IMG/VR virus record: IMGVR_UViG_3300027956_000024
Location: 1-36,771 of that record
From: a virus
Taxonomy: Duplodnaviria; Caudoviricetes
Length of the DNA stretch: 36,771 nt
Direction: 5' to 3' (one strand)
Position numbers and translations under genes: made by a program. Positions 2,432 through 33,923 of the stretch are shown here, piece after piece. Positions within the stretch are counted from its first letter, which is position 1; every line of letters starts with the position of its first letter. The notes under the pieces were generated by a model. It had not been told where the DNA came from. It was given only the letters and a program-made list of their open reading frames with translations, and searched no databases.

Positions 2432-4287
2432 CAAAGCCCCCCACCCAACTGGGCCTGCGCCTCCGCACGGACGATTACTTCCGCACGGAGTTCGAGGAGC
2501 GCCTCAGCCTGGACCCGGCCTTTGCCACGACCATCCGCCAGAGGCTCCAGTCGCCCGCCTGGGCCGTCATCAACCTCGGGACCGTGGCCTCGGGGAGCTC
2601 GCAGGGCCTGATCCCCTACGATCCCGGGCAGATGACGGTGCGGATGCAGCAGGAGATGATTGAATACTGGGACGATCCGCCCCGAGATCTCGATGGGATG
2701 ACGAAGTTCCTCACGCTTTTGGCCCCGCGGCAGGTGGGCAAGTCGCTGGCGGCAGAACTTCTGGGGTACGCCACCGCCAGCCGCAACCCCGGCTGGGACC
2801 ACGTCTGCGACGCGGACACGAAAGACCGGGCGATCTACCTCCATCAGCGCGTTCACGACAATCACCGCCTCTGGCCACTCGCCCTTCGCACGGAGACCGT
2901 CTCCGCGAAGGAAAACAGGCAGATGACCTTCGAGTTCCCGGACAAGACCAAGTCGAAGATGCGCGTTCGGAGTGCCAACGACGATTCTCTGGGCCTGGGA
3001 CAGAGCCCGGACTCGTACCACGCCAGTGAGTGCGCCTTCTGGAACGACTTTGGCGGCGCCATGTCACTGATCCTCCCATCCATTACGAACAGAGCGGACT
3101 GCCGCGTCGTTTTTGAGTGTACGCCAGCCCCTTTGGGCCTTGCCTCGGGCGCCGACTGGAAGGACCACTACTTCGCGGCCAAGAACCCCATCGCTGGGGT
3201 GCGGCACATGGCCCGCTTCTACCCCTTCTGGGACGGGTTGCTCAACCGGCGGCGCTGGCCGCCCGAATGGAAGATGGACAACGAGGAGATCCGCCTCATG
3301 GAGCGGTTCGCGCCGCAGGGCCTGACCAAGGAGAACCTCGCCTTCCGCCGGATTCAGCTCGGACAGGCCACGGAGTTCCGAAAGCACCCGGAAACCTTTC
3401 GGATCTGGTATCCGTTCGATGACGCCACGTGCTGGATGGAGGGGACGGTACGCGCCGTGCCGGCCGCAGCCCTGGAGCGGCACGCCGACACGCCGAAAGT
3501 TCAGTGGACGACCGAGGATGGATACCAGGAGTACGAGCCGCCGCGCCCAGGGGCCATCTACGTCATTGGCGCCGACCCCTGCGGCTCCGCCGGCCGGGAC
3601 CACGCCGCGTTTGTGGTGCTGGAGGTGTGGGCGGACGAGTGGCGCGTGGTCGCCTGCTACAGCAACACGACCACGCCCCTGGATTTCGCCAACCTCCTCC
3701 TGAAAACGGGCGAATACTACAACATGGCGTACATCGCCGTGGAGAATAACGGCGTCGGGCAGGGGACGCTGTCGCCAATCATCGCCGCTAAGTACAAGAA
3801 CCTCTGCTACGATCGCGGCCAGCCTGGATATGTGAGCGCAGGGGGCGCAGTCGGGGAAGCCCTCTTGGGAGACATGGTTCAGGCGCTCCTTGACCGGATC
3901 TACATCCCCTGCCAGTTCCTGTTCGACCAGCTCTCGACGTACAAACATGACAAAACCACGCAGGAGAGCAATAGCCAAGAGACTTTGCGCGCACTCACCA
4001 ACGTGATCGCCAAACCTGCTCGTGGGCGCCGAGAGAAACACCACTGGGACCTCGTCAGCGCCTTGATGATGGCGACGAAGGGCGCACGGATGGAGGCCCC
4101 ACGGCGACACAAGCCAAAAGCCACAGACCGGGACGTCAATGCCGGCGATCCGCGCACCTTCCCTGACGCGGGCTTGACAAAAGGCCGCAAGGCCGCTATG
4201 ATGCGACAACTTGGTCTCACCCCCAGCACAAAGAACGCCTGGGGGCCGTCCGGCCGGAATAGCACAGCACTTTGGGGGCGGAAATGA
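2428..4287 (+). CDS. terL: Terminase large subunit
   Basis: Walker A (LLAPRQVGKS), Walker B (YHASECAFW), coupling motif (VVFECTP), RNase H-like nuclease motifs (YVIGADP...RDHAAFVV, IAVENNGVG, HHWDLVSA). ATG 2428 with GGAGG upstream. Confidence 0.93.
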   Translation: MTKPPTQLGLRLRTDDYFRTEFEERLSLDPAFATTIRQRLQSPAWAVINLGTVASGSSQGLIPYDPGQMTVRMQQEMIEYWDDPPRDLDGMTKFLTLLAPRQVGKSLAAELLGYATASRNPGWDHVCDADTKDRAIYLHQRVHDNHRLWPLALRTETVSAKENRQMTFEFPDKTKSKMRVRSANDDSLGLGQSPDSYHASECAFWNDFGGAMSLILPSITNRADCRVVFECTPAPLGLASGADWKDHYFAAKNPIAGVRHMARFYPFWDGLLNRRRWPPEWKMDNEEIRLMERFAPQGLTKENLAFRRIQLGQATEFRKHPETFRIWYPFDDATCWMEGTVRAVPAAALERHADTPKVQWTTEDGYQEYEPPRPGAIYVIGADPCGSAGRDHAAFVVLEVWADEWRVVACYSNTTTPLDFANLLLKTGEYYNMAYIAVENNGVGQGTLSPIIAAKYKNLCYDRGQPGYVSAGGAVGEALLGDMVQALLDRIYIPCQFLFDQLSTYKHDKTTQESNSQETLRALTNVIAKPARGRREKHHWDLVSALMMATKGARMEAPRRHKPKATDRDVNAGDPRTFPDAGLTKGRKAAMMRQLGLTPSTKNAWGPSGRNSTALWGRK

Positions 4288-12867: not shown

Positions 12868-15008
12868 TGCCGGGCCGCGCGAACCTGGATGACACTACGC
12901 AAGGCCCCTACCGGCTTGTTGGGATGGACACGCGCCGAGCCGCCCGCACGGAGGGCGCGGCGACGCTAATCCAGAACTTCAACGTCGGCATTGACGGCCT
13001 TCTGCGAGGCATCGTCGGCCCAGCCCCTGTGATGGTGGATCTGCAGTCCGGCGCCCCGCAGACGTACGAGCCCCTCTACGGGGTCTTCCTGGGCAACATC
13101 GGCGGGCTCGAGACGCTGTTGATCTACGAAGGGGGAGCCATCAAGCGGTGGACACCGTGGGGTGGACAGAACGCCTGGGCCACGCTGGAGGAGGGGCTCC
13201 AGGCAGGCAGCACGCTTGCGCCGGCACAGTTCCTGTCGGCCGGCGAAGGGGTCGTCATCCTTCCGCAGTCTGTAGAGGGGGCGCAGCCGCGCTACTACGA
13301 CGGCATGTACTACGGCTACCTCGGCTACCCGGACATCCCCCCGACGGTTGACCCCATTGGGCCAAGTAACAGGTCGCCGTCGAGCACCGGCGTACCAGCT
13401 TACGAGGGACACAACACCGCGGGCATCGCGCGGATGGCCGTAGACCTCAACAAGACCTATGAAAGCGACGGGTCACTCACAGAGACGAGATACCGCTTCT
13501 ACAGGTACGGCTTTGGGGCCATCGGATCGACAGAGGCAAACCCCGCATCGACAGACGCAGAAGGAGAGGATGCGGGGATCTTGTTGCCTGGAGAGTGGTT
13601 TGCCACTGTGCAGTATGTGAATCGGTGGGGGCATATCTCCGCGCCCGCGCCGCTGTCGGCACCACAGCGCCTCAGTTTCCGACGCCCCATCAACACCAGT
13701 ACGCAACTGGAGGACCTCCGGCAGAACTGGTATTGGAACATTCCCGTAGGGCCTAAGAACACCGTAGGACGGATCATCTCGCGGACGCGGGACACGATAA
13801 ACAACGGAACGGGCTTCACGACTTACGAACTTCGAGGCCGTGCAGGTAGCTCGGGGCTTGCAGCCTTCGCCTCTGTCCCTGACAATGCCAGTACGCTGTT
13901 CTACGATAACTTCGGAGACGGCTCCCTTCTCACAGAGACGATGCAGACCATTCGCGTTCCTACGGCAACTGCGATGGCTTTCGCTTTCGGGCGGCTCTGG
14001 CTCGGCACGCGCGACGGCCGCATCTATTTCAGTAAGCAAGGCAACATCGGCACGTTCCTCCGTGATGAGTTCGTCGTCACCTCCGGACGTGTGACTGGAT
14101 TCGCACTGACCCCCGAGGGGCTTATCGCTTTTACGGCTACGGACGCCATGATGGTGATCGAGCGGCCCGAGGCGGCTGCGTTCACCACGAGGAAGATGGC
14201 TTCGACCGAGGGGTGCGTGGCGCCGGACAGCATCCGCACGCTCACCGACGGGACGGTGATCTGGCTGTCTCGCCGAGGGTTCTGCGCCTATGCCGCCACG
14301 GCAGATGGAGGAACACCGCTGCACGTAGGGGCGCCGATCGTCCACGACTGGACGGAGCACATGGAAACCGTAAGGACCGCCTGCGCGGTTGTGCATCCGA
14401 CACAGGGGACTTACATCTGCTGGGTTCAGACCAAGCGAGGGAAGATTGGTTTTCAGTTCGACTCGCAGTTTGGCTGGAGCATCCGTACGGATGTCGAGGC
14501 AACTTCTGCTACGCCGTTTGATGACACGATCATCGCTACTGGAGTACGGAGCGACGACTCACTGCGGGGCATCTGGTGCCTGGATCGGCGCCAATACAAG
14601 TCGGCCAAGGTAGACTATGTAGGCGACCTCACCTACATCATCGAGACGGAGCACTTCAACACCCAGGATCAGGCGGCAGTTAGTGCGTGGCACCTTGAAA
14701 TGGAGGTGTGGCACAACACCGCCCCTACGTTCACGGTTGAGTGTCTCCCGTATGGCCGGGCCGTGACCACGACGTCTACGCATACGGTCGCGTCGTCGAC
14801 CGTAGACAACGGCGCAGACAACGGACGCTGGGACACCTTCGTCTGGGGCGCTGAGGCCGAGTATTGGGATAAGGACCTGCAGTCGGTTATTCGCGCAGAC
14901 CTGAGCGCCCACCACGCCCGGACCTTCCGCGTGCGGGTTACGGCGCAGACGCCACCCACCATCGGCTGGATCAGCGTCAACTCGAATAAGCGAGGGGGTG
15001 TCCGTTGA
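12867..15008 (+). CDS. Tail nozzle / tubular protein B-like (beta-propeller)
   Basis: 713 aa with propeller-like segments (FAFGRLWLG, IYFSK, EGCVAPDSI, VIWLSRRG) as in P22 gp10/T7 gp12-type nozzles; TGATG coupling to the adaptor gene. Confidence 0.7.
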   Translation: MPGRANLDDTTQGPYRLVGMDTRRAARTEGAATLIQNFNVGIDGLLRGIVGPAPVMVDLQSGAPQTYEPLYGVFLGNIGGLETLLIYEGGAIKRWTPWGGQNAWATLEEGLQAGSTLAPAQFLSAGEGVVILPQSVEGAQPRYYDGMYYGYLGYPDIPPTVDPIGPSNRSPSSTGVPAYEGHNTAGIARMAVDLNKTYESDGSLTETRYRFYRYGFGAIGSTEANPASTDAEGEDAGILLPGEWFATVQYVNRWGHISAPAPLSAPQRLSFRRPINTSTQLEDLRQNWYWNIPVGPKNTVGRIISRTRDTINNGTGFTTYELRGRAGSSGLAAFASVPDNASTLFYDNFGDGSLLTETMQTIRVPTATAMAFAFGRLWLGTRDGRIYFSKQGNIGTFLRDEFVVTSGRVTGFALTPEGLIAFTATDAMMVIERPEAAAFTTRKMASTEGCVAPDSIRTLTDGTVIWLSRRGFCAYAATADGGTPLHVGAPIVHDWTEHMETVRTACAVVHPTQGTYICWVQTKRGKIGFQFDSQFGWSIRTDVEATSATPFDDTIIATGVRSDDSLRGIWCLDRRQYKSAKVDYVGDLTYIIETEHFNTQDQAAVSAWHLEMEVWHNTAPTFTVECLPYGRAVTTTSTHTVASSTVDNGADNGRWDTFVWGAEAEYWDKDLQSVIRADLSAHHARTFRVRVTAQTPPTIGWISVNSNKRGGVR

Positions 15009-15718
15009 GCATGTATGTACCGGCACCGCTGGGTGTAGCGGAGAGCGGCTCCACAGAGCCCATCAACAAGGCCCTCGGTGTCCTCAGTCGGGCGCTGCGC
15101 TCCGTCGATAGCAACAACTTTAGCGCCAACTCCCTTGATGTCGCTGAGTATGGCGCCATCCAGCGCGTAGTGGGTGTGTCGCTCCAGGTCCCGATCGGGG
15201 ACGACGGCGATCTGGAGCCGGCGACGTACTCCGGGTGCCTGCCGTACGATGACTCCACTGGCGCATGGGAGGGCTTGAAGGATGGGGCCAGCCGAGACAC
15301 GACCTGTAACGGGCTGGCCATTGAGATCAATAAGGCACGCAACTGGTCGCTGCTGAGCAGCACACTGACCAAGTCCTTTACGTGTCGGCAGAGTTTCCTA
15401 CACCTACGATTCACCTGCCAACTGTCGAGCAACATCCTCGGTGACGTTGGCGTCCAGTTCGCCTTCCGCGTGGACGGGCGAATCATCGACGACTCCGCTC
15501 AGGGAGGCTCTCCGAGCCCAAACGACCCATACACCGGGATGCACATAGTCGACGGGCCTGTGTTTGTGAGGGCTCTTGTACCTGTGGAGGATGGAGAGCA
15601 CACCGTCGAGGTTGTGTATCGGGCGCTCTACATGCCAGAGGTATCCGCAAACGTAGATGAGATGACCTTCAACATCCTTAGCAGGTACTTGATCATCTCC
15701 GCGGAGGGCTCGCCATGA
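15005..15718 (+). CDS. Small tail-associated beta-sandwich protein
   Basis: TTGA overlap with the nozzle stop (alternative ATG at 15011); beta-rich, GEHTVEV motif. Confidence 0.65.
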   Translation: MSMYVPAPLGVAESGSTEPINKALGVLSRALRSVDSNNFSANSLDVAEYGAIQRVVGVSLQVPIGDDGDLEPATYSGCLPYDDSTGAWEGLKDGASRDTTCNGLAIEINKARNWSLLSSTLTKSFTCRQSFLHLRFTCQLSSNILGDVGVQFAFRVDGRIIDDSAQGGSPSPNDPYTGMHIVDGPVFVRALVPVEDGEHTVEVVYRALYMPEVSANVDEMTFNILSRYLIISAEGSP

Positions 15719-19532: not shown

Positions 19533-19561
19533 TTGACGGAGCGCGCGGCGCGTGCTACACG
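19533..19561 (+). promoter_or_regulatory. Putative promoter for the giant virion gene
   Basis: TTGACG-17 nt-TACACG, with TGC just before the -10 element, in a 64-bp intergenic gap. Confidence 0.4.
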
Positions 19562-19590
19562 AGCGAGACGACAACCACGGGAGTCTCCAT

Positions 19591-22500
19591 ATGGCTACGC
19601 CGCCGCGCACCAGCAGCCCCCTCGCCGTCCCTGGGTTCACCGCTCCTGCGGGAGAGGCTCCCAGCGAGGTGTGGCGCGAGGCTCGGGAGAGGCTTGAGGC
19701 CGACCAGAGGCAGGTCGATCAGCAGCGCAGCAAGCGAGCGGCGGAGAAGGCCGCGGCCGTCGCCGCCGTGCCGGTCCCGCCCCCCGCAGCGACCGACAGC
19801 GCGCCGACCGAGGACGACGAGGACGACGGAGACATCGCCGACGACGCCGCGGAGAACACCCAGGCGTACCTCGACCGCTACCTCGCGCCGGTGCGCGCCG
19901 CCGCGCCAGGGATGACCGACGCCTGGGTGGCGGCGAACAGGCGAGACCTCCCGCAGCCCATCGTCAACTTGACCCCAGAGCAGATCGGAGAGGAGCGCGC
20001 CGCCGCCGCCACCGCCTTCGACTTCTACCGCTCGGCGTACGACGCGGTCGACGGCGACACGGAGAAGCTCCGCGCGCAGATTTTGTCCAAGAGCGCCCCT
20101 GGCATCGACGCCCTCGCTGGAGACAAGAAGGCGTTCGAGGCCCTGGTGGACTTGGCGGATCAGGAGACCAAGCCCTACTCCTGGTTCACCCGCGCCGCCG
20201 GCACGTTCGGGGACGCAGACTTCGAGGAGAGCGCCGCGCGAACCAAGGAGGAGTTCACCGCCGGCCGCGCCGCTCGCGCAGTGACGCTGGGTCCGAAGCA
20301 GCGGCGGTTCAAGGAGTTGACCACGGTCTTCACTCCGGGAGCCCTGCCCGAGATCGACATCACGGACACGCAGGCGGAGTTGATCGAGGACTATCGCGTC
20401 AAGTACGCGACCGACGCGCAACTTGATGGCCGGGAACTGACCGCGGACGACTGGCGAGAGATTGAAGGGAAGGCCATCGACTCGGCCACGCAGGACATTC
20501 GCCACGCTATGTCCTCTATCGGCCGCCCGATTGTCTTCTCGATGGGAGCGTCGAAGACCCCGCTGGAGATGCAGATCGAGAACGACCGTGCGACTGGCAT
20601 AGACCGTGTGCTGGATAGTACGGGCGCCTCCATCATGGAGGCCAAACTCCGGTGGAAGAAGGCGGAGTTGCCGACCGAGGCAGGTAGTGTGGACTCCGCA
20701 CTGATCCAAGGAGGCAACGCCGCGGGCCTGCTCGGGCAACTCCTGATGGCCATCGACCCGACGGAGATCGTAGGCACCTCTTTGGACGTGGCCGCCAAGG
20801 AGTACCGGCGCAGCCTCGCCGCGGCGGAAGAAGACGGCGAAGTGGCCGACAGTGGGGACGTCCTGCTGAGCGCCGCCAAGGGCGCCGTCGCTGGCGGCTA
20901 CGCCAACGCGCTGCAGATGTTCCCGCTCTTCCCATACGACGAGGCCCTGGCCGCTGCCGGCGCGGCTGGCGTAGTGCCGGAGGCAGCCAACGAGTGGCGC
21001 GAGCAAGTGGTGCGGGACACCATCATCTCGAGTGGCGACAACGAGGACTACTTCGACACCGTCACGGACGCACTGCCGACCTTCACGGCTGCCGGATGGC
21101 GAGCGGCCACGGGCGAAGAGAACACCGCCGCGATGAAGAAGTGGTTCTTGGAGAACCAGTTCGCCGCAAAGTCGGCGTTGATGCTGGTCGCAATCAAGAC
21201 CCCGATGCTCCCCGTCACCAGCGCCCTCGGCCCCGTCGGGGACCTCGTGACCGGCGCGGCTCGCGCTCGGCGCATCCCCACGGACATCGCCACGACGATC
21301 GAGCAAGGCATTGAGGCGGGCCTGGACGCCACGACGGTTGCGCGGAACGTGGACAACGCCTACGGCGTAGGCCCCGGCGGGGCAGTGCAGGCCGTTGCAA
21401 TCTCGGCCGCAGCCAACGCCGCCGAGCGGGACGTAGACCTGCTCACCCGAGAGGTGAGCCAGATCGTCTCTCGGGTGCAGGGGCCGGTGGATGCTGCCCG
21501 CGTCGCGAGCGAGGAAGCTGCGGCGGCTGCGGCCCGCGCGGCGCGCACGACCGCCGTGGAGGGCAGCCTCACCGCCGCGAAGTTGGACGACGCAGCGGTC
21601 GCGCCCATCCGCAGCGACCTCGACACGGAGGAGCTCCGCCGGCTGATCGACCCCCAGGCGGACCCGACGCAGCCCTCGAAGATGGCAGACGCCATCTCCG
21701 ACTGGGCGGCGGCCGTCGCCGGCCCTCAGCGCACCAGCGACGACCTGCTGCAGACCACGGACCTGATGGACAAGGCCCTGGCGCACACGGCCAAGGTGCG
21801 GGAGGCAGTCTACGACGTGGCCCGCGGCGCCCAGAGCCAACTCGATGCCGCCGAGGCCAGCCTGACGCCCACGGTCATCGCCTCCATCACGGACATCACG
21901 CGCGCCGAGAAGGCCCTGGCACGGGCCATGACGCGCCTCTCGGACCTCCGCACGACCGTGACCGGCGCCGACGACATCCTTGACGGGGTGATCTCGCTCG
22001 CGCGGGCGAAGAAGAACGAGGCCGCCCTTCGGCTGCGACTCAAGCGAGTTCGGGAGGGTGGAGGCAACCTCTACGAGTCCCGCTCGCGGAGCGCCGTAGA
22101 GGCAGAGATCGCGGCCCTGGAAGGCAACACCACGAAGACCCGGCAGGAATACGCCTACTTGGCGCACCTCAAGTCTCGCGTGGCCGCAACGCCCCAGGGG
22201 GCTGCGGACATCCGGCTATTCTCTACGGACGCCCACGTCGTGATGGGCATGATCCGCAACAACCGGAAGCACATCGAGCGCGGGCAGGCTGCGCTGGAGG
22301 CCCTCAAGACGAAGAACCCCAAGGCGTACGCAACCGCCGAGGGGATCATCAGTGACATGCAGGCCCCGGCCCGCGTCCTGAGCGACACAGACAAACTGGC
22401 CGCGGCGGCGAATGGCAAACTGCTCCAGCGGCAGGCGGCGAACCTCCGCAAGCAGCAGGGCAATCTCATCAACGTGGTGAAGAAGCTCGACGCCGTCGAT

Positions 22501-25500
22501 GCCCACATCGCCTTGAAGACGCGGGCAAAGTACCCGACATCTGTTCGGCCGCTCAAGGCATTGAAGGGTTCCGCGGTCAACGAGATCGAGTTGCGCCGCG
22601 CCGAGGCGCTCCGCCGCGCGAACGCCATCGCCCGCCGCCGAGCCATCAACGCCGCAGGCACCGACCAGCAGGCGCGCGTCGCTGCCGAGGCCGCCTGGAA
22701 CGCACAGACGAAGGAGGTGCAGAAGGCCAGCCGCGCCGCCGTCAGCGCCGCCCGGACGGCGGCGGCGAGCCGCCTTGTCGTTCGGCAGCGGGAAGCCCTC
22801 GTGGAGTTCGCGGCGGCCCTCCGCCGAGGCGCCGCCGAGACCGCGCGCCGGAAGATCAACACCCGGTCCATGACCTACCGCACGGGCCTCCCCGACCGAG
22901 ACCTGCGGATCATCGACCACGCCAAGGATGAGCTCACCCGCCGGTTGGGCGCCTCCGACGTTTTCGGCAACGCTGTCGGCACCAAGCAGGAGTACATCGA
23001 CCACGTCGTCGCTTCGGTGCTGCGCGTGGCCGACGACATCGGCAAGGACCTCGACCCGGACGACCTGCGGCGCGTCATCGACGAGGTGTCTCCCGCCACG
23101 GTGGTCGACTTCGCTACGCTGGGGACGGCCGCGGGCCGCCGCGCTGCGCTGGAGAACCTCACGCGCTCGCTGGCAGAGATCCAGCACGCCGGGTTCAGCG
23201 CCGTCGGCGACGTGAAGATGGAGCACCTCCACCAAGCGGTCACCGAGGCCGTTGGCGTCGCGCTACAGACCCGTCGCGCCGAGCGGGACGTCTTCGCTGC
23301 GCTGACGATGCAGCAGTCGGCGTGGGCTCGGCAGGGGTTCCGCTACGCGCTCTACAAAATGATGACCCCCCGCGCAGGGTTCATCGGAGAAGGCAGCGAT
23401 CAGGCGTGGCGCGTCTACCAGCACGCAGATCAGGTCTCTGCTGGCCTCCAGGCGTGGCTGGTAGTGCAGAGCCAGCGCGCCATTGACGACCTGATGAAGA
23501 CCGGCGGACAGTACACCCGGAAAGAGTTGGCCGATCGACTCCTTACTACGCTCTCCGAGGCGTTTGCTACGGTCGGGGACAAGGCCCGGCTGGGTCTCCC
23601 GGTCGACACGCTCTCTCCTTTCCAGGTAGCCAAGCGGTTCTTGATGGAGCGGTCGCCCTCCGCGCACGCATCTACGGTCACTCCGACCGGAGGGGCCGTT
23701 CGAGACACCACGAAGGTGGCCGAAGTAGTAGAGGCCGTACGAGCGGCGAAGACCGCCCAGGAGAAGGCCGTTCGGGCGCACGCTGGCAACCAAGTAGTGG
23801 ATGGGCGCCGCGCCCGTAGCGTGACCATCGACGCGGAGATCCTGGCCCGCAAGCAGGCGGAGTTGGATGCACGCAACGCGGAGGCCGCAGGGAACGCGAC
23901 CCAGGCCGCGGAGGCCCGCGCACGCAAGGCGGAGTTGGAGGCCGATAGTGTCGCTGCGGAGAAGACGCTCAGCACCCTCCCGCAGGACATCATCGACGAC
24001 GCCGTCCGGGTTGAGGAGGAGGCGCTCGCGAAGTTGAACGCCGAGAAGGCAGCGACGAAGGCGAAGCTCGCGCAGGCCGACAAGGACGTCAAGGCCGCTG
24101 AGCAGGCCGGGGCGCCCAAGAGGACCCCTGCTGACCGGGCCAAGAGCGCCGCGGAGATCAAGGAACTCGAGCGGCAGTTGACGCCCGAGAAGATCGCGGA
24201 GCGGCAGGCGCAGGCGCAGGCCATGTGGGAGGCGACGAAGGCCCGCAAGGCCGGCAAGTTGTTCGAGGGCAAGCAGGCCCCAGCCCCGAAGGAGGTCAAG
24301 GACTATGTGACGCAGCGCCTTGCTGAGGGCGCAGACCCGGCCACGGTGCTGTACGAGGCCGCGCAGTTGCCTGGGGTCCGCTGGGCCGCCAGCACGTACG
24401 TGCGCCGCATGTTCCACCCCGACGTAAGCCTCATGTCGAATGGCGGCCTCGCCAGTCAGCACCTCGACACGCTACGTCAGGCGCTCAAGAACCTGGAGAA
24501 CTTCGAGGCGGACGAGGCGTGGAAGACCTCCGTTGGCCGGCGCCGAGAGACGGGCAACATCAAGCCCACGGCAGATGAGCCCTGGCGCTTCTCTGACGCG
24601 GAGACCGTCAACAGTGCCCGACGGATGCAGGCCATCGAGGCAGCAAGTCTGGAGTTCCAGGACGCACTGAACGCCCCGCAGAATATCAAAGAGGCGCGGA
24701 TCGTTATTCGCAACCTCATCAAGCGAGGCGAGAAGTACCAGAAGGACACGCAGGAGCGCATCACCCAGGGGCTGGCCCAGATTATCGAGGTTCAGGGGCA
24801 GGCGGCCAAGACGTCCGATGCCTTCCTGGACTCGGACATCTTCAAGGCGTTCGAGCAGCAACTCGTCAAAGAGCGGGCCGCCGTACTGGCGAAGAAGGCG
24901 GAGCTCGCCGCCGAGGTCGGAGGAAACAAGGCAGGGGCAGCGGCGGCGCAAGCTGTGCGCGCTCAACTCACGGCAGACCAGAAGGCGCTGTTGGGCAGGA
25001 TCACTTCGCAGACCGCGAAGGTGAAGGCCGCCAAGGCCGGGAAGGTCGCCACGCCGGCCGCAGCCGACTACATCCGCAGCGTGAAAGACAAGATCGCGAC
25101 GATCGACGACGACATCAAGAGCATCAACGCGCAGATCGGTACGTTCGATCGCTTCTCCAGCGTCGATGTTGCCACGCTGGAGGCGGAGATCCTTCGCCTG
25201 AGCAAGTCCTTGAAGGATAAGCAGGACGCGGCGCAGATCGCCAGCCAGCGGTCTGCGGCATCCCGCAAAGCCCTGGAGGATGCGACGACCACGCTGCGGG
25301 CGAAGCAGGGAGAGTTGACGCAGATCGAGAACGCCGCGGCGAGCCTCACCCGCTCGGACCTTGTGGGCGCCATCAACGAGGGGGCGCTTGATGAGAAGAC
25401 CATGACGATCTTCGACAAGATCGTTCTGAACATGGGGCGCTCGGTGTTCCGCGGTATGCAGGCCACAGGGCTCGACGAGGACACGCTCAACCGGATCTTG

Positions 25501-28104
25501 TATACGGTGGCTCGCGACGCGCTCGCAAAGAGCGATGACTTCAAGACGCTCCACGAGCGGATCAAGAAGGGGCTGCTGGGTCGACTGCCAGGGCAGTTGC
25601 GAATCATCGACGACCGCGCCCCTCGTACTGCGACGGCCCTCTCCGCCGCGCTCATGCAGGCCGTCACCGCAGAGTACACCACGCAGTATGCGCTGAGGGA
25701 GGGGCTCGCCATTGTGCAGAAGACGGAGGCGATGGGGTTCAACGCACTCCTCAGCCGACCCATCGCAAACTCGATGAACAACTCCACGACTGTTATTCGG
25801 GACATGTACTCGACGCTTGAGCAGGTACTCCGCACGGGCGCTCGCCTCGGGCGAGTCAACGAGGGCCGCTCGACCCTGCCCATCTTTGATCGCCGCGGGG
25901 ACGTCAGCCTGGAGTTGGTAGAGGCCGCCAAGTTGCCCGGCTTCAACGGTGGCGTCTGGCTGCCGGAGAGCGTGCTGCGTACGGCACTGGAGGATCTCGA
26001 AGCCTACGCGCGGCAGATGGATGTCCTCAGCGCGACTGCCCCGGCGGAGATTGGTAGCTGGATTGCGGACAAGGCCAAGGACCTGTTCTCTATATGGCGG
26101 ACCTCGAAGTTGGTGGGCTACGGCATCAACTTCGGCACGTACCGCACCCGAGCCGTGACTGGCGACATCGCGTCTACTTACATGGTCTTTGGGGCAAAAG
26201 AGGCGGCGAAGGTGGCGGCGATGTCCACGGCCAACGTCCTGCCCTTTGTGCGTGAGGGCGCCATTGACAAGCTCGGCGCCCTGGGCACGCTGTCCAACAA
26301 GGCGGTTGCCTCCTTGGCCGCTACCACAGCCGCGTGGCGCAACGGAACGGTCGCATCCAAACTGCTCTCTCCGGGGACGTGGCAGTACCTTCCCCGGCGG
26401 GTGAGCGCCGCGATCCTGGACAGCGTGGCAGAGGTTCCGAAGGCTCTTGCCGGGATCACCAGCCCTCACGTCGGGCGGATGCTCCGTGGAGAGATGGACG
26501 AGGTGCTCCGCCTGGGCGACACGGAGCAGACCGTAGAGCAGTGGTGGAACGAGGCCCGGCGTGAGGGCATCCTCGACAACAACGTCGAGATCAACCTCCG
26601 CACCGCCCTCCGTAGAGGCAGCGAGATGTGGGCGGAGGTCACGAGCCGCCGACACTCCTGGGCCGCGGTGGAGTTGGAATACTTCAAGCAGAAGAAGGGC
26701 AACCCCTCCGTGACGCGGGAGTCCGTTCGGCAGTCGATGGAGGCGTCCGAGAGCGTCAAGACCGTCGCGCGGACCACGCGGATCAAGCACGCGCTCCTAC
26801 GGCACCAAGAGACGCTGGAGAAGACGGAGGCTCAGGTCCACGTCACCACGCGCATCACGCTCTACACCAGTCTCCGCAAGCAGGGACTCACGGCCAAAGA
26901 GGCCGCCGACGGGGTGAAGGCTGCCATCTATGATTGGAACTACGGCGCCAACCGCGCTGTGCTGAACATGTTGTCCTTCGTCCCGTTCGGCCGATTCCAT
27001 GTTCTCCGCAAGCAGCAGGGCGTGGACATGTTGAACATGGCCAGCGACACCAGTCCGTGGCGGAAGATGGGCGGAGGCGCCATCGCTCCTCTCCGGCGCG
27101 CCGCCCTGCTGGAGCGGTACATGGCCAGCAGCACGCAGTCGGAGATCCCCAGCGAGGAGGAGTTGGACATCCACCTCGCAGATGCCCGCGCCTACGGCGC
27201 CAACATGGCCGACGAGTGGGGGATGACGCCCCAAGAGGCCGCAGTCGCCGCCGAGCAGGAGACGCTCTCCTTCTTGATCAGCGCGTGGTGGGCGCGCGCC
27301 CACTCCCCAGACTACCTCTCGAACCGCCAATACTTCTACGACATGATCCCTGCGGAGCAGCAGGAAGCCTTCAAGAAGGCGTACGGGTCCGACCCCAGCA
27401 CCACGTTGGCCATGACCAGCCGGATGCCGCAGCTTAGCGTGTGGGATGCCTTCGAGGTCATCAGCACGGGCGCAGCCCTGGCGGAAGTTACTTTCGCCAC
27501 CTTGAACGGGGAGGACGTAGTGGCGGCGAACGCCATGAGCAAACTCACGAAGCCGTGGATTGACCTACTGCCCGATCCTGCCAAAGCCATTCTGGCTGTA
27601 TTCGCTGGTAAGGCCGGGGCTGAGATGGACGCCATCGAGCAGGGAAGGCACACGCCGCAGATGTTGGCAGCGGCTACGCCCGCTGAGGCCGATATTATGA
27701 ACGCTCTGGGGTACGCCCCGGTGACCTTCGGCCTGTCGGATTCGCCCATTCGTTCGTTGCTGACGACTACCAAAGAGGGCGATGCGCGCCCCCGCGCCGG
27801 TGGGATGTGGTCCAAGTCCTTGCTCGCCGCTATTCGACTGGACCCTGTAATCAGCCCTGCGTTGACCAAGACGATCAACGCCTCTGCCTACAAGAACCCG
27901 CAGTACGGGAAGGACTGGGATGCAGTTCGGGCTGCTTACACGTTCTCGAACTTGGTCGGCGCCACATCCTACGGCGTCACTGATCCCCTTCGAGAGGCGA
28001 CCTTCGACGTCCGGGATGTGAAGGCGGCCCTTACGAAGAAGAAGCAAACTGCAAGTGGCGCTTCTCGACAGGGGGCGCGGGCTGCAGAGGAGCAGGAGCC
28101 TTGA
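19591..28104 (+). CDS. Giant internal virion / ejection protein (~2837 aa)
   Basis: Uninterrupted 8.5-kb ORF, Ala-rich coiled coils; C-terminal A-x-x-V-x-x-x-IYDW...FVPF segment resembles large podovirus internal proteins; ATG 19591 with GGAG upstream. Confidence 0.7.
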   Translation: MATPPRTSSPLAVPGFTAPAGEAPSEVWREARERLEADQRQVDQQRSKRAAEKAAAVAAVPVPPPAATDSAPTEDDEDDGDIADDAAENTQAYLDRYLAPVRAAAPGMTDAWVAANRRDLPQPIVNLTPEQIGEERAAAATAFDFYRSAYDAVDGDTEKLRAQILSKSAPGIDALAGDKKAFEALVDLADQETKPYSWFTRAAGTFGDADFEESAARTKEEFTAGRAARAVTLGPKQRRFKELTTVFTPGALPEIDITDTQAELIEDYRVKYATDAQLDGRELTADDWREIEGKAIDSATQDIRHAMSSIGRPIVFSMGASKTPLEMQIENDRATGIDRVLDSTGASIMEAKLRWKKAELPTEAGSVDSALIQGGNAAGLLGQLLMAIDPTEIVGTSLDVAAKEYRRSLAAAEEDGEVADSGDVLLSAAKGAVAGGYANALQMFPLFPYDEALAAAGAAGVVPEAANEWREQVVRDTIISSGDNEDYFDTVTDALPTFTAAGWRAATGEENTAAMKKWFLENQFAAKSALMLVAIKTPMLPVTSALGPVGDLVTGAARARRIPTDIATTIEQGIEAGLDATTVARNVDNAYGVGPGGAVQAVAISAAANAAERDVDLLTREVSQIVSRVQGPVDAARVASEEAAAAAARAARTTAVEGSLTAAKLDDAAVAPIRSDLDTEELRRLIDPQADPTQPSKMADAISDWAAAVAGPQRTSDDLLQTTDLMDKALAHTAKVREAVYDVARGAQSQLDAAEASLTPTVIASITDITRAEKALARAMTRLSDLRTTVTGADDILDGVISLARAKKNEAALRLRLKRVREGGGNLYESRSRSAVEAEIAALEGNTTKTRQEYAYLAHLKSRVAATPQGAADIRLFSTDAHVVMGMIRNNRKHIERGQAALEALKTKNPKAYATAEGIISDMQAPARVLSDTDKLAAAANGKLLQRQAANLRKQQGNLINVVKKLDAVDAHIALKTRAKYPTSVRPLKALKGSAVNEIELRRAEALRRANAIARRRAINAAGTDQQARVAAEAAWNAQTKEVQKASRAAVSAARTAAASRLVVRQREALVEFAAALRRGAAETARRKINTRSMTYRTGLPDRDLRIIDHAKDELTRRLGASDVFGNAVGTKQEYIDHVVASVLRVADDIGKDLDPDDLRRVIDEVSPATVVDFATLGTAAGRRAALENLTRSLAEIQHAGFSAVGDVKMEHLHQAVTEAVGVALQTRRAERDVFAALTMQQSAWARQGFRYALYKMMTPRAGFIGEGSDQAWRVYQHADQVSAGLQAWLVVQSQRAIDDLMKTGGQYTRKELADRLLTTLSEAFATVGDKARLGLPVDTLSPFQVAKRFLMERSPSAHASTVTPTGGAVRDTTKVAEVVEAVRAAKTAQEKAVRAHAGNQVVDGRRARSVTIDAEILARKQAELDARNAEAAGNATQAAEARARKAELEADSVAAEKTLSTLPQDIIDDAVRVEEEALAKLNAEKAATKAKLAQADKDVKAAEQAGAPKRTPADRAKSAAEIKELERQLTPEKIAERQAQAQAMWEATKARKAGKLFEGKQAPAPKEVKDYVTQRLAEGADPATVLYEAAQLPGVRWAASTYVRRMFHPDVSLMSNGGLASQHLDTLRQALKNLENFEADEAWKTSVGRRRETGNIKPTADEPWRFSDAETVNSARRMQAIEAASLEFQDALNAPQNIKEARIVIRNLIKRGEKYQKDTQERITQGLAQIIEVQGQAAKTSDAFLDSDIFKAFEQQLVKERAAVLAKKAELAAEVGGNKAGAAAAQAVRAQLTADQKALLGRITSQTAKVKAAKAGKVATPAAADYIRSVKDKIATIDDDIKSINAQIGTFDRFSSVDVATLEAEILRLSKSLKDKQDAAQIASQRSAASRKALEDATTTLRAKQGELTQIENAAASLTRSDLVGAINEGALDEKTMTIFDKIVLNMGRSVFRGMQATGLDEDTLNRILYTVARDALAKSDDFKTLHERIKKGLLGRLPGQLRIIDDRAPRTATALSAALMQAVTAEYTTQYALREGLAIVQKTEAMGFNALLSRPIANSMNNSTTVIRDMYSTLEQVLRTGARLGRVNEGRSTLPIFDRRGDVSLELVEAAKLPGFNGGVWLPESVLRTALEDLEAYARQMDVLSATAPAEIGSWIADKAKDLFSIWRTSKLVGYGINFGTYRTRAVTGDIASTYMVFGAKEAAKVAAMSTANVLPFVREGAIDKLGALGTLSNKAVASLAATTAAWRNGTVASKLLSPGTWQYLPRRVSAAILDSVAEVPKALAGITSPHVGRMLRGEMDEVLRLGDTEQTVEQWWNEARREGILDNNVEINLRTALRRGSEMWAEVTSRRHSWAAVELEYFKQKKGNPSVTRESVRQSMEASESVKTVARTTRIKHALLRHQETLEKTEAQVHVTTRITLYTSLRKQGLTAKEAADGVKAAIYDWNYGANRAVLNMLSFVPFGRFHVLRKQQGVDMLNMASDTSPWRKMGGGAIAPLRRAALLERYMASSTQSEIPSEEELDIHLADARAYGANMADEWGMTPQEAAVAAEQETLSFLISAWWARAHSPDYLSNRQYFYDMIPAEQQEAFKKAYGSDPSTTLAMTSRMPQLSVWDAFEVISTGAALAEVTFATLNGEDVVAANAMSKLTKPWIDLLPDPAKAILAVFAGKAGAEMDAIEQGRHTPQMLAAATPAEADIMNALGYAPVTFGLSDSPIRSLLTTTKEGDARPRAGGMWSKSLLAAIRLDPVISPALTKTINASAYKNPQYGKDWDAVRAAYTFSNLVGATSYGVTDPLREATFDVRDVKAALTKKKQTASGASRQGARAAEEQEP

Positions 28105-31705: not shown

Positions 31706-31722
31706 CGCACCCAGGAGAGGAC

Positions 31723-32127
31723 ATGGCCCGCTTCGAGGGGAGGAAGGTCTGGAACCTGACAGGGCACCACGTTCGGCTGCTCCGAAAGGGGGACCAGAGC
31801 ATCGTCTGGAACTCTGACGGCCTGCTCCGCGTAGCGGCCGGGCCGAAGGTGGATGGCCGCACGCTGTTCCTCACGTCGCCTGCGGGCAGCCCGGTCTGCG
31901 TCGGCGTCTACCGGCCCCCTCTCCCGACCGAGCTGTTCTGCCACGGCTTCCGCCTGGAGGACATCACCGACGAGGACGTGGTCGTGGTCTCGACGCCGTG
32001 CGGCGCCCTGCTCAGAGACAACCCGAACCTGTTGCCGAACGCGAGGTTCGTGCTAAGCCCGATGGGTGCGGACCCCGTCAACGGGCGGAAGGGCGCCAAG
32101 AGCTTCGCGTACTGGAGGGGATTCTGA
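31723..32127 (+). CDS. NLTxH-motif protein (possible Crn4/Unk01-like ring nuclease homologue)
   Basis: AGGAGAGG RBS, ATG 31723; N-terminal WNLTGH, then G-x-x-RV, VVVS and SP spaced like the phage NLTPH family. The function is tentative. Confidence 0.45.
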   Translation: MARFEGRKVWNLTGHHVRLLRKGDQSIVWNSDGLLRVAAGPKVDGRTLFLTSPAGSPVCVGVYRPPLPTELFCHGFRLEDITDEDVVVVSTPCGALLRDNPNLLPNARFVLSPMGADPVNGRKGAKSFAYWRGF

Positions 32128-32525: not shown

Positions 32526-32995
32526 CCACGAAGCCCAAGTTCGTCGTTGGAAGGTCCAGCCAAGGCCATCTCGACGGCTGTCGAGGTGTGCTCTCGATCC
32601 TTGTTCGCAGGGCGCTTGCTCGGGCGGACATGCCTCACGACTTCAAGGTCACGGAGGGGCACCGTCCCAACTCCGAGCAGGACGCCCTCTACGCGAAGGG
32701 CCGGCGGGGAGTGCCCGGCGAGAGGATCGTCACCTACGCCAAGGCCGGGCAGAGTTGGCACAACGTCTGGCCGTCGCAGGCCATCGACATCATGGTCCTC
32801 GTGAAGGGCCGGGAGTGGGACGAGGAGCTGTATGACGCGGTCGCCGCGGTCGTCATCCTCGAATGGGCGCAGATGCAGCGAGAGGGGCTCTGCGTTGAGA
32901 CCCTTCCAGATGGGCAGACCATCACTTGGAACTTGGAGTGGGGCGGCAACTGGCGCCGGCCCGACCGACCACACTTCCAGATCGTCAAGGCGTAA
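32522..32995 (+). CDS. Endolysin, M15 family L-Ala-D-Glu peptidase
   Basis: VTEGHR...EQDALYAKGR, SWHN...AIDI and WGGNW...DRPHFQ zinc-peptidase motifs (Ply500/T5 lys type). Confidence 0.92.
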   Translation: MTTKPKFVVGRSSQGHLDGCRGVLSILVRRALARADMPHDFKVTEGHRPNSEQDALYAKGRRGVPGERIVTYAKAGQSWHNVWPSQAIDIMVLVKGREWDEELYDAVAAVVILEWAQMQREGLCVETLPDGQTITWNLEWGGNWRRPDRPHFQIVKA

Positions 32996-33000
32996 AAGCT

Positions 33001-33028
33001 AAGCCCCACCGGTCTCCCGGCGGGGCTT
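33001..33028. terminator. Hairpin between convergent transcription units
   Basis: AAGCCCC-ACCGG-TCTC-CCGG-C-GGGGCTT directly after the endolysin stop. Confidence 0.7.
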
Positions 33029-33056: not shown

Positions 33057-33251
33057 CTACTCGACGGGCGCGGGCTCCGCCGCCGGAACGACGACCGCCT
33101 CGACCGCGGCCTCGACGGCAGGCGGGGGCGGCACGGGCACGACGCCCTGGCCGAAGAGGAACTGCCACGCGGCGAGCGCGGCGGCGCCCACGGCGCCAAG
33201 GATGAGGGCGATCTTGCGCTTGCGGGCGGGGGCTGGCTTCGGGTCGGTCAT
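33057..33251 (-). CDS. Small single-TM membrane protein with Pro-rich tail
   Basis: RKRK, then IALILGAVGAAALAAWQFLF; GAGG RBS. Confidence 0.7.
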   Translation of the reverse strand: MTDPKPAPARKRKIALILGAVGAAALAAWQFLFGQGVVPVPPPPAVEAAVEAVVVPAAEPAPVE

Positions 33252-33390
33252 CAGGTCCTCGGGTGCGCCCTCGCAAGGGCGGCTGCTGCGGTGGAGCGGA
33301 TCTTCGCCGCCTCGGGGGTCTCGATCGGCCAGTCGCGGAAGCGCCGTTCGAGCTCTTCAAGGAGGGTCAGGGGCTTGGTCGGAGCCTCAT

Positions 33391-33738
33391 CTACTGCCGG
33401 CGCGGACGGCCGTCCACCGAGCCAGAGAGCATTGAGGCGACTTCGTTTGGGACCGCGGCCAGCCTATCGCTGAGGCGCTCGAGGACAGCCTCAACTCGGG
33501 CGAGGGACGACGTCGTCGCTGCCATCGTGGCGCCCGTAGCGGCGTGGCCTGCTTCGAGGTGGGCGATCTTGTTCGCGTTGACCTCGTGCTTCGCGTTGAG
33601 CTGTGTCTCCAGGGCGTCGATCTTCTTCTCCGCGGCGCTGAGCCGGGTGTGCAAGACGGCCCAGGCGGTGGCGCCGCCCGAGCCCGCGCCGAGGGCGATG
33701 GAGATGATGCTCTCGTAGAGGGCTGGGTCGGACGACAT
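33391..33738 (-). CDS. N-terminal TM plus coiled-coil protein (lysis-associated?); possible -1 frameshift extension to 33251
   Basis: GGAG RBS, hydrophobic IISIALGAGSGGATAWAVL, heptad-like body. Confidence 0.75.
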   Translation of the reverse strand: MSSDPALYESIISIALGAGSGGATAWAVLHTRLSAAEKKIDALETQLNAKHEVNANKIAHLEAGHAATGATMAATTSSLARVEAVLERLSDRLAAVPNEVASMLSGSVDGRPRRQ

Positions 33739-33769
33739 GCAGGGCTCCGCGGCGAAAAGGTGCCGAGGC

Positions 33770-33798
33770 AGCCTAACTTACGCGAGTGGAGGAGTCAA
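33770..33798 (-). promoter_or_regulatory. Sigma70-type promoter for the membrane cassette
   Basis: On the - strand TTGACT-17 nt-TAGGCT, same spacing and -10 as the 28101 promoter. Confidence 0.6.
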
Positions 33799-33923
33799 TG
33801 GACGCACTCGCACAGGCACCTCGGCGCCTCCGACGGAAGGCGCAGAGAGAGCAGCAGCGCCAAGAGCACCCAGGCCAATAGGACCACAAGGATCAGCGAG
33901 CCGTAGTAGGTGGTGTCGCTCAT
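33795..33923 (-). CDS. 42-aa membrane peptide (MSDTTYYGSLILVVLLAWVLLALLLSLRLPSEAPRCLCECVH)
   Basis: ATGA overlap with the upstream gene, GGGGAG RBS, clear TM helix; absent from the ORF track. Confidence 0.6.
   Translation of the reverse strand: MSDTTYYGSLILVVLLAWVLLALLLSLRLPSEAPRCLCECVH

Follow-up and report, generated by a model that had tools for sequence, protein, structure and literature searches.

A small membrane protein gene adjoining the endolysin gene of an uncultured tailed phage probably employs a programmed −1 ribosomal frameshift, judging by its sequence and those of its relatives. The gene, hereafter ORF1, is located in a 36,771-base stretch of phage DNA (the window), all of which was analyzed. 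A frameshift at this site was proposed in the initial annotation, and the proposal is now supported, mostly, by contigs from other strains, the slippery heptamer, the hairpin of a diverged relative, and the conservation of the peptide encoded in the −1 frame. The complete scenario, in which slippage would yield a major membrane protein of 115 amino acids (aa) and a minor one of 162 aa, appears likely as well, if slightly less so; its weakest part is a possible role in the regulation of lysis.

Genome context and comparison set

Genes in the window (65.6% G+C) include those for a terminase, a portal-like protein, an M15-type endolysin, a class II ribonucleotide reductase, and a protein of 2,850 aa. 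End repeats are lacking, and proteins of the ORF1 family sit on contigs as long as 67 kb, so that the window represents an incomplete genome. A profile scan of the window proteins produced a match to the SU10 portal (E = 1e-4), and a podovirus-like phage is plausible. The best matches among named phages are 21–31% identical and indicate no host, and no match to ORF1 was found among 50,697 named phages. For 80 endolysin loci at 33–42% identity, kinship was established by none of the tests made, and ORF1 was found in none of the four records searched; two scans of genome contigs detected no further ORF1-family loci, and searches of viral contigs with family proteins retrieved the L081 record alone. 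At the level of diverged DNA, the window was compared with two loci, L083 and L081, in which ORF1 is 58–59% (63 of 109 aligned residues) and 36–37% (39 of 108) identical to that of the window, respectively. Ten clusters of homologous proteins show 61–98% identity, with further ones down to 37%, and all ten homologs from a search over the range of 63–202 aa are 108–122 aa long. The 41 family proteins represent clusters at 90%, are non-independent, and were compared as protein only.

Two other proteins of the window deserve mention. The 134-aa protein encoded at 31720–32127 (+), which has no PHROG or Pfam matches, is family-specific (73% identity with its L081 counterpart; also found in L083) and is a good marker for this phage group. 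The 2,850-aa Ala-rich protein (19552–28104, +), without a Pfam match, may be located inside the virion or take part in ejection.

Gene layout

The features of the ORF1 region are as follows.

33770–33798, −: promoter-like site preceding ORF1, TTGACT-17 nt-TAGGCT, with 8 of the 12 consensus positions matched (found with our own pattern)
33745–33748, −: GGAG, ribosome-binding site of ORF1; GGAG precedes ORF1 in L081 and L083 as well
33391–33738, −: ORF1, 115 aa, the short product; Gly-rich N-terminal hydrophobic segment (approximately residues 10–29) and a long predicted helix/coiled coil
33464–33466, −: TAG five codons upstream of the heptamer, closing the −1 frame, read from the sequence
33445–33451, −: slippery heptamer C CCA AAC (Pro97-Asn98), identical and in frame in the window, L083, and L081
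33439–33444, −: spacer, 6 nt, as in L083
33384–33438, −: stimulator-like hairpin of 55 nt identified by folding, the 3′ arm of which includes the ORF1 stop; L083 has a counterpart
33251–33445, −: −1 frame extension, 64 codons plus TGA, residues 99–162 of the predicted long product
33254–33394, −: conserved distal part of the extension (the tail), 47 codons, with two predicted helices and no hydrophobic segment
33057–33251, −: TM2, 64-aa single-pass membrane protein with a basic N-terminus, an acidic Pro-rich tail, and no Cys
32994–33028, −: G+C hairpin with a short T run at the operon end, at the convergence with the endolysin gene; similar hairpins in L083 and L081
32522–32995, +: endolysin of the M15 peptidase type (phrog_465, E = 1e-23; PF13539, E = 1e-4, below the cut-off)

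The order ORF1-tail-TM2 adjoining the endolysin is kept in all three loci, with intervening genes in L081 and L083. The ORF1 operon is on the strand of the ribonucleotide reductase gene; the structural genes and the endolysin gene, whose product lacks an N-terminal hydrophobic segment (maximum hydropathy, 0.99), are on the other strand. TM2 follows the extension in each of the three loci, with a 2-nt gap in L081 and a start/stop overlap in L083 and the window; in the latter, as originally noted, the TGA at 33253–33251 overlaps the ATG of TM2. The accompanying suggestion that TM2 might be coupled to frameshifting loses ground: TM2 has its own ribosome-binding site, GAGGA, and therefore need not depend on frameshifting.

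The promoter-like site of ORF1 is present with the same spacing in L083 and has no match in L081; the promoter scan tool reported no promoters at ORF1, this site falling below its threshold, and the terminator scan did not list the hairpin at 32994–33028. Three promoter-like sites of the form TTGAC-17 nt-TAnnnT were detected in the window, at 4174 (+), 28101 (+), and 33798 (−); two of these share TAGGCT as the second hexamer, and one falls within the terminal part of the terminase gene, ahead of the portal-like gene. Just upstream of the ORF1 promoter-like site is a small variable membrane ORF (33796–33923, −), the L083 counterpart of which (L083:2698–2937) contains a lipobox-like F-A-G-C; the L081 ORF in this place is unrelated. 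In L083, the space separating TM2 from the terminator-like hairpin is occupied by a Tad2-like gene (Thoeris anti-defence 2, PF11195, E = 3e-17; L083:3658–3912); the corresponding place holds an unrelated ORF for a 91-aa acidic protein in L081 (L081:3649–3924) and no gene in the window.

The putative frameshift signal in the window

The sequence elements described in the initial annotation were all reproduced. The heptamer C CCA AAC (33451–33445) is in frame with ORF1; the stem-loop said to start 6 nt after it does so and folds at −28.3 kcal/mol; the −1 frame is closed by the TAG at 33466–33464 and includes no ATG, GTG, or TTG in its 64 codons; the lengths of the predicted products, 115 and 162 aa with 98 common residues, are correct; and the reported GC3 bias of the distal part corresponds to a G+C fraction of 0.70, 0.57, and 0.81 at codon positions 1, 2, and 3, respectively, over 47 codons.

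Among the 11,260 codons of 28 window genes, there are five in-frame heptamers of the form X XXY YYZ (Y = A/T), and the one in ORF1 is unique among the five in that the −1 frame runs past the stop codon of the gene; the fold downstream of it is equalled by 1.9% of 1,500 random coding stretches. CCA accounts for 11.5% of the Pro codons. The hairpin, with its edges as chosen in the initial annotation, has a z-score of −2.36 (4 of 200 shuffles equal or better), and with flanks included, −1.61 (17 of 200). Resampling of synonymous codons reached the hairpin energy in 8 of 400 trials for the window, in none of 400 for L083, and in 9 of 400 for L081. Inspection of the sequence upstream of the heptamer revealed no SD-like 5′ stimulator in either the window or L083. 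Elsewhere in the window, a second in-frame CCCAAAC occurs at codon 172 of the gene at 15005–15718 (+), where the sequence that follows folds weakly (−13.7 kcal/mol) and the −1 frame, 47 codons long, stops before the gene end.

Conservation of the heptamer and the hairpin

Comparison of homologs, the check suggested in the initial annotation, bore out conservation of the heptamer in both diverged loci and that of the hairpin, at the same spacing, in L083. No invariant run in ORF1 is longer than the one that includes the heptamer (10 nt across the window, L083, and L081), and this run is the second longest in 1,074 three-way alignment columns from four genes. Given the amino acids, the chance of the heptamer codons is 0.04–0.09 per locus. 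Of the fourfold codons that end in A or T in the window, L081 retains 2 of 21 overall (1 of 19 when ORF1 is left out) and L083 retains 8 of 23 overall (1 of 5 within ORF1); the heptamer motif is retained at its synonymous positions in all three loci. At the protein level, [VLF]-P-N is present in 39 of the 41 (clustered, non-independent) family proteins. The exceptions, one contig each, are P0012 and P0050, with F-S-N and F-P-T, respectively, residues with which the heptamer cannot be encoded. Over the four genes compared, the longest run invariant in the three loci, 16 nt at 32533–32548 (+), is at the start of the endolysin gene and may be a translation or regulatory signal.

The L083 hairpin (40 nt, −28.0 kcal/mol) has a z-score of −5.7, with none of 200 shuffles folding as well, and shares with the window hairpin the outer GCCUC/GAGGC helix; the inner stems differ. 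An empirical rule for stimulators (PMC4066793, in its accessible part) places the start of the hairpin 4–10 nt downstream and specifies a first G-C pair followed by three more pairs; the window and L083 hairpins, both with a 6-nt spacer, conform to this rule. In L081, the folds that do so are all long and multi-branched, and a strong 11-bp hairpin begins 15 nt past the heptamer and is thus too distant for a usual stimulator; AGGA is located approximately 16 nt upstream of the heptamer. When the window and L083 were folded jointly on a MAFFT alignment, the hairpin was missed, the 15-nt difference in length having been gapped across the stem, and separate folds were compared instead. Between the closing stop and the heptamer, the −1 frame is open for 4 codons in the window, 5 in L083, and 141 in L081.

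The distal tail

The 47-codon tail is very probably a coding sequence. It is 74% identical (35 of 47 residues) between the window and L083, compared with 58% for ORF1, and 17 of the 36 residues aligned with L081 are identical, including the core L-T-L-L-x-x-L-E-R-R-F-x-D-W-P; the linker between the heptamer and the ORF1 stop shows no conservation in the −1 frame. Of the eight listed tail differences in a strain contig (X2 record 12), six are synonymous in the −1 frame; in another (X10 record 1), all three listed tail changes are non-synonymous, one of these at an otherwise invariant Leu codon. The differences between the window and L083 are distributed over codon positions as 7/8/12, a mild third-position bias. 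The structural model of the tail (pLDDT 73, pTM 0.30) consists of two helices. Profile searches with the tail detected no family match, the ESM Atlas showed no look-alike for it, and none of the 86 matches in a fold search with its model reached E ≤ 0.001. Among 5.8 billion proteins, the tail was observed exclusively in an ATG-bearing form of 37 aa (one of three candidates), a cluster of eight proteins that all begin with MTAP, having been selected by gene calling; no natural in-frame fusion of ORF1 with the tail was detected in a weak search that included 4,659 longer candidates.

The initial annotation had raised, as an argument against frameshifting, the possibility that homologs encode the distal peptide from a start codon of its own. 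This is the case in the L081 clade, which also keeps the heptamer, and not in the window or L083, where no ATG, GTG, or TTG precedes the conserved tail. In L081, the tail ATG overlaps the TGA stop of ORF1, inside the 11-bp hairpin. The four −1 codons before this ATG encode VVEA, as do the first four of L083, with four differences, all at third positions; none of 7,516 overlapping null −1 stretches scores as well, in a test that followed the observation. We read this arrangement as one in which slippage and the separate ATG would both be open to L081, slippage alone being left to the window clade; the L081 tail is probably also made on its own, from its ATG.

The alternative that best withstands these comparisons, although we consider it unlikely, is translational coupling, whereby the distal frame would be a separate gene for 37–47 aa, and ribosomes terminating on ORF1, having unwound the hairpin, would reinitiate one base back: in the L081 clade at ATG, and in the window clade at a non-standard GTA overlapping the TAG. 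There is a precedent in the lysis gene of MS2, the expression of which was first ascribed to frameshifting and later to termination-coupled restart (PMC5009743, in its accessible part). The main evidence for coupling is the L081 layout, with the ATG overlapping the TGA inside a perfect hairpin, as in coupled restart; furthermore, the 37-aa product is gene-called in the above cluster, GTA overlaps the stop in L083 no less than in the window, protein conservation starts near the ORF1 stop, and 8 of the 30 window genes have stop/start overlaps of 1 or 4 nt. However, GTA is a very poor start codon and here lacks a preceding ribosome-binding site, and coupling leaves unexplained the invariant heptamer with its rare CCA, the fixed 6-nt spacer, and the VVEA codons upstream of the L081 ATG. 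The use of TAG rather than TGA at the end of ORF1, considered as a sign of selection against a GTG start, proved uninformative, given that TAG ends 9 of the 30 genes, in 8 cases after G.

Gene decay, which appears highly improbable, would imply that, in the window clade, the start of the distal ORF has disappeared and the ORF is untranslated, the hairpin being involved in mRNA processing or stability and Pro-Asn being kept for the sake of the protein. The lack of a canonical start and the ATG-bearing form in L081 fit this account, and Pro-Asn could cap the coiled coil; still, the tail is better conserved than ORF1 between the window and L083, the synonymous CCA is retained, and the changes listed for the strain contigs include no stop or frame-breaking indel.

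Strain contigs

Logan contigs (contigs, not reads) of X1, X2, X3, X4, X7, and X10 were compared over the ORF1-TM2 region. The X1 contig is identical to the window and may be its source; X8 yielded no contig over the region. As to the indel suspected in the initial annotation as a possible artifact, those among the listed changes in X2, X3, X4, X7, and X10 are either offsetting or multiples of three. X10 record 2, which spans 33336–33500, carries four substitutions and one 3-nt deletion; in the tail, a 3-nt deletion found in X10 and X7 preserves the frame. At 33430–33455, there is no strain difference among those listed; three of the five contigs covering the heptamer contain it well inside, and in the other two it is close to an end, a part of the contig for which differences are not listed.

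Altogether, 23 listed strain changes fall inside the window hairpin, as placed by hand on the version of the fold in the initial annotation (−28.0 kcal/mol). Fourteen of these are unpaired, including eight in the apical loop; of the nine at paired positions, three retain the pair with an unchanged partner (two U-G to C-G and one C-G to U-G), and A-U to G-U occurs twice. In X3 record 5, two apical pairs are altered on both sides when read with offsetting indels, and a neighboring U-G pair is lost. In several strains, a change at 33396 (−) ends ORF1 one codon sooner, creating two TAG codons in tandem, as in L083; the −1 frame stays open in these strains, and lower-stem pairing is kept or gained.

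A one-base assembly or sequencing error that broke a single 162-aa gene or an ATG-started second gene has next to no probability and is already refuted by these independent contigs: a frame-0 ATG does directly follow the ORF1 stop, one base off the distal frame, but the listed indels all preserve the frame, L083 shares the frame relation and lacks this ATG, and the homologs are uniformly of ORF1 size. The same frame-0 ATG, which opens a 7-codon mini-ORF ending in CCC TGA, was rejected as an entry into the distal frame, being absent in L083.

Proposed mechanism

Under programmed frameshifting, the explanation that we favor, the hairpin would stall the ribosome, and the tRNA-Pro and tRNA-Asn would slip in tandem from CCA AAC to CCC AAA at residue 98, with translation resuming at the Arg codon at 33445–33443. 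A minority of ribosomes would slip back one base in this manner, presumably at most a few percent. The long form should be the less abundant one because A_AA.C sites are of low efficiency in E. coli: according to the accessible part of PMC4066793, these sites are weak, and E. coli tolerates an AAC to AAA slip in the A site poorly, although C_CC.A_AA.C is not one of the 3 of 64 heptamers that were at background with the IS3 pseudoknot. The products would be a major 115-aa membrane-anchored coiled coil and a minor 162-aa form with the conserved two-helix tail, both with an N-out/C-in topology such that the coil and the tail are cytoplasmic, and the two forms might join in mixed oligomers at a fixed ratio. 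Together with TM2, the pair could act as holin-like lysis regulators similar to mycobacteriophage LysF1b or Mu gp25, the long form being a low-abundance adaptor or timer. Counting against frameshifting are the L081 ATG, the AAC to AAA slip, P0012 and P0050, the lack of an SD-like 5′ stimulator, the non-synonymous tail changes, and the lack of a natural fusion among the proteins searched.

Possible functions of ORF1 and TM2

The N-terminal segment of ORF1 is weakly hydrophobic (hydropathy 1.55), with acidic residues before and basic residues after it, and the protein therefore probably has an N-out/C-in topology, which would make the tail cytoplasmic. The structural model of ORF1 (pLDDT 70, pTM 0.28) contains a helix spanning residues 21–108.

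A role of the ORF1 pair and TM2 in lysis or its control is quite possible, if short of probable, and as a label, lysis is plausible. ORF1 and TM2 are small membrane proteins near an endolysin, the usual mark of holins, albeit encoded convergently and not co-transcribed with it. The lysis/membrane cassette of the initial annotation did not hold up in this respect: the ORF1 operon is on the strand opposite the endolysin gene and converges on it, so that there is no co-transcribed lysis cassette. The creditable small membrane genes near the endolysin are ORF1, TM2, and one non-conserved ORF of 42 aa. A releasin cluster is among the ESM Atlas look-alikes of ORF1 (0.92, rank 17 of 30), and there are weak Rz-like matches (E = 0.0016–0.005), with charges that suggest a topology opposite to N-in/C-out. 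Against lysis are the opposite strand, the separate promoter-like site, the Tad2-like gene in the L083 operon, the lack of a family match above the cut-off, and the incomplete genome.

Possible too, though with a weaker claim, is that the same two products belong to an early or constitutive membrane operon for interaction with the host, such as superinfection exclusion, lysis inhibition, or counter-defence; this reading contests the function only and not the frameshift. It accords with the sigma70-like site of the operon, which is kept in L083, with the location on the ribonucleotide reductase strand, opposite to the structural genes and endolysin, and with the Tad2-like gene within the L083 operon. 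It is at odds with the proximity to the endolysin in all three loci (across intervening genes in L081 and L083), with the weak look-alikes being lysis proteins (Rz-like proteins and the releasin cluster), and with there being no other creditable holin candidate in the sequenced part of this incomplete genome.

Several specific assignments were rejected. ORF1 is not a DUF2730 member: PF10805 is absent among the families listed for 12 members (25 of 31 shown) and for P0013, which bears no more than a precomputed DUF2730 label, and there is no transposase among the 31 window proteins scanned from this incomplete genome. A two-component spanin (Rz/Rz1) is ruled out, there being no lipoprotein partner with a lipobox Cys, either adjacent or embedded; ORF1, the extension, and TM2 contain no Cys. 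A tail assembly chaperone (G/GT) does not fit the location of ORF1 between the endolysin and ribonucleotide reductase genes, opposite to the structural genes.

In a more specific scenario, which we regard as doubtful, a holin-like gene sets the ratio of the coiled-coil form to the tailed form by −1 frameshifting, a recoding counterpart of the dual-start holin/antiholin arrangement. The family would then display both stages of the origin of such a gene, namely, a tail ATG along with the slip site in one clade and loss of the start, with frameshifting only, in the other.

Comparison with known systems

In the −1 signals of bacteria (IS3 and IS1 families, dnaX), an X_XX.Z_ZZ.N heptamer is combined with a 3′ hairpin (PMC4066793, accessible part). 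ORF1 resembles these in the form of the heptamer, the hairpin 4–10 nt downstream with a first G-C pair (window and L083), and the overlapping −1 ORF, start-less in the window and L083, and differs in the low-efficiency A_AA.C site, the absence of an SD-like 5′ stimulator, and the nature of the product, a membrane protein rather than a transposase or clamp loader. Confined to 70 nt, the signal bears on whether a Pro-Asn (A_AA.C) site combined with a simple hairpin is used by bacteria.

The phage frameshifts described in the accessible part of PMC5009743 are those in tail chaperones and in capsid and tail proteins, and holins, endolysins, and spanins are not mentioned there. A search of the literature for frameshifts associated with holins or lysis, or with this heptamer, with thin coverage of subscription papers, yielded no described case; the accessible parts of PMC10885494, PMC13313380, and PMC13704836 contain no additional frameshift in a lysis gene. 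The nearest report concerns Streptomyces phages of cluster BI2, with putative frameshifts predicted by GeneMarkS near predicted holins (PMC9671017, accessible part), which differs in being program output for unrelated siphoviruses, with no site or conservation given in that part. A conserved frameshift in a membrane gene by the endolysin would thus extend the phage list beyond tail chaperone, capsid, and tail genes. In clades without a start codon, the 47-residue tail escapes gene callers.

The low-level slip near the 3′ end, the short major and long minor products, and the set ratio, as predicted for ORF1, would be shared with the tail chaperone G/GT and with Ig-like extensions (lambda, T3, T7, A2, PSA; PMC5009743, accessible part). 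Unlike G/GT, ORF1 is not located between the major tail and tape-measure genes and by no match is a virion protein; unlike the Ig-like extensions, that of ORF1 consists of two helices. In the alphavirus 6K/TF pair, according to the part of the literature available, −1 frameshifting gives a small membrane protein a second form with another C-terminus, an analogy only, given the eukaryotic virus polyprotein and the unrelated sequence. The L081 clade fits coat-lysis coupling in MS2, where a hairpin conceals the start of a small gene next to the upstream stop (PMC10885494, accessible part), MS2 differing as an RNA phage with a canonical start; this clade offers a natural comparison of coupled restart with frameshift fusion.

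As far as the accessible parts of the reports go, the Mu releasin gp25 (PMC9239132) and LysF1b (PMC13056207) are similar to ORF1 in size (approximately 100–120 aa), the single N-terminal membrane segment, the proximity to the endolysin, and, should the probable N-out/C-in topology of ORF1 be right, the cytoplasmic helical domain, and no frameshift is described for either in those parts. The system differs from that of Mu gp25 in that this phage is not Mu-like, its endolysin has no SAR-like segment, and ORF1 is on the opposite strand. Should ORF1 function in lysis, recoding would add to the means of fixing the ratio of effector to regulator.
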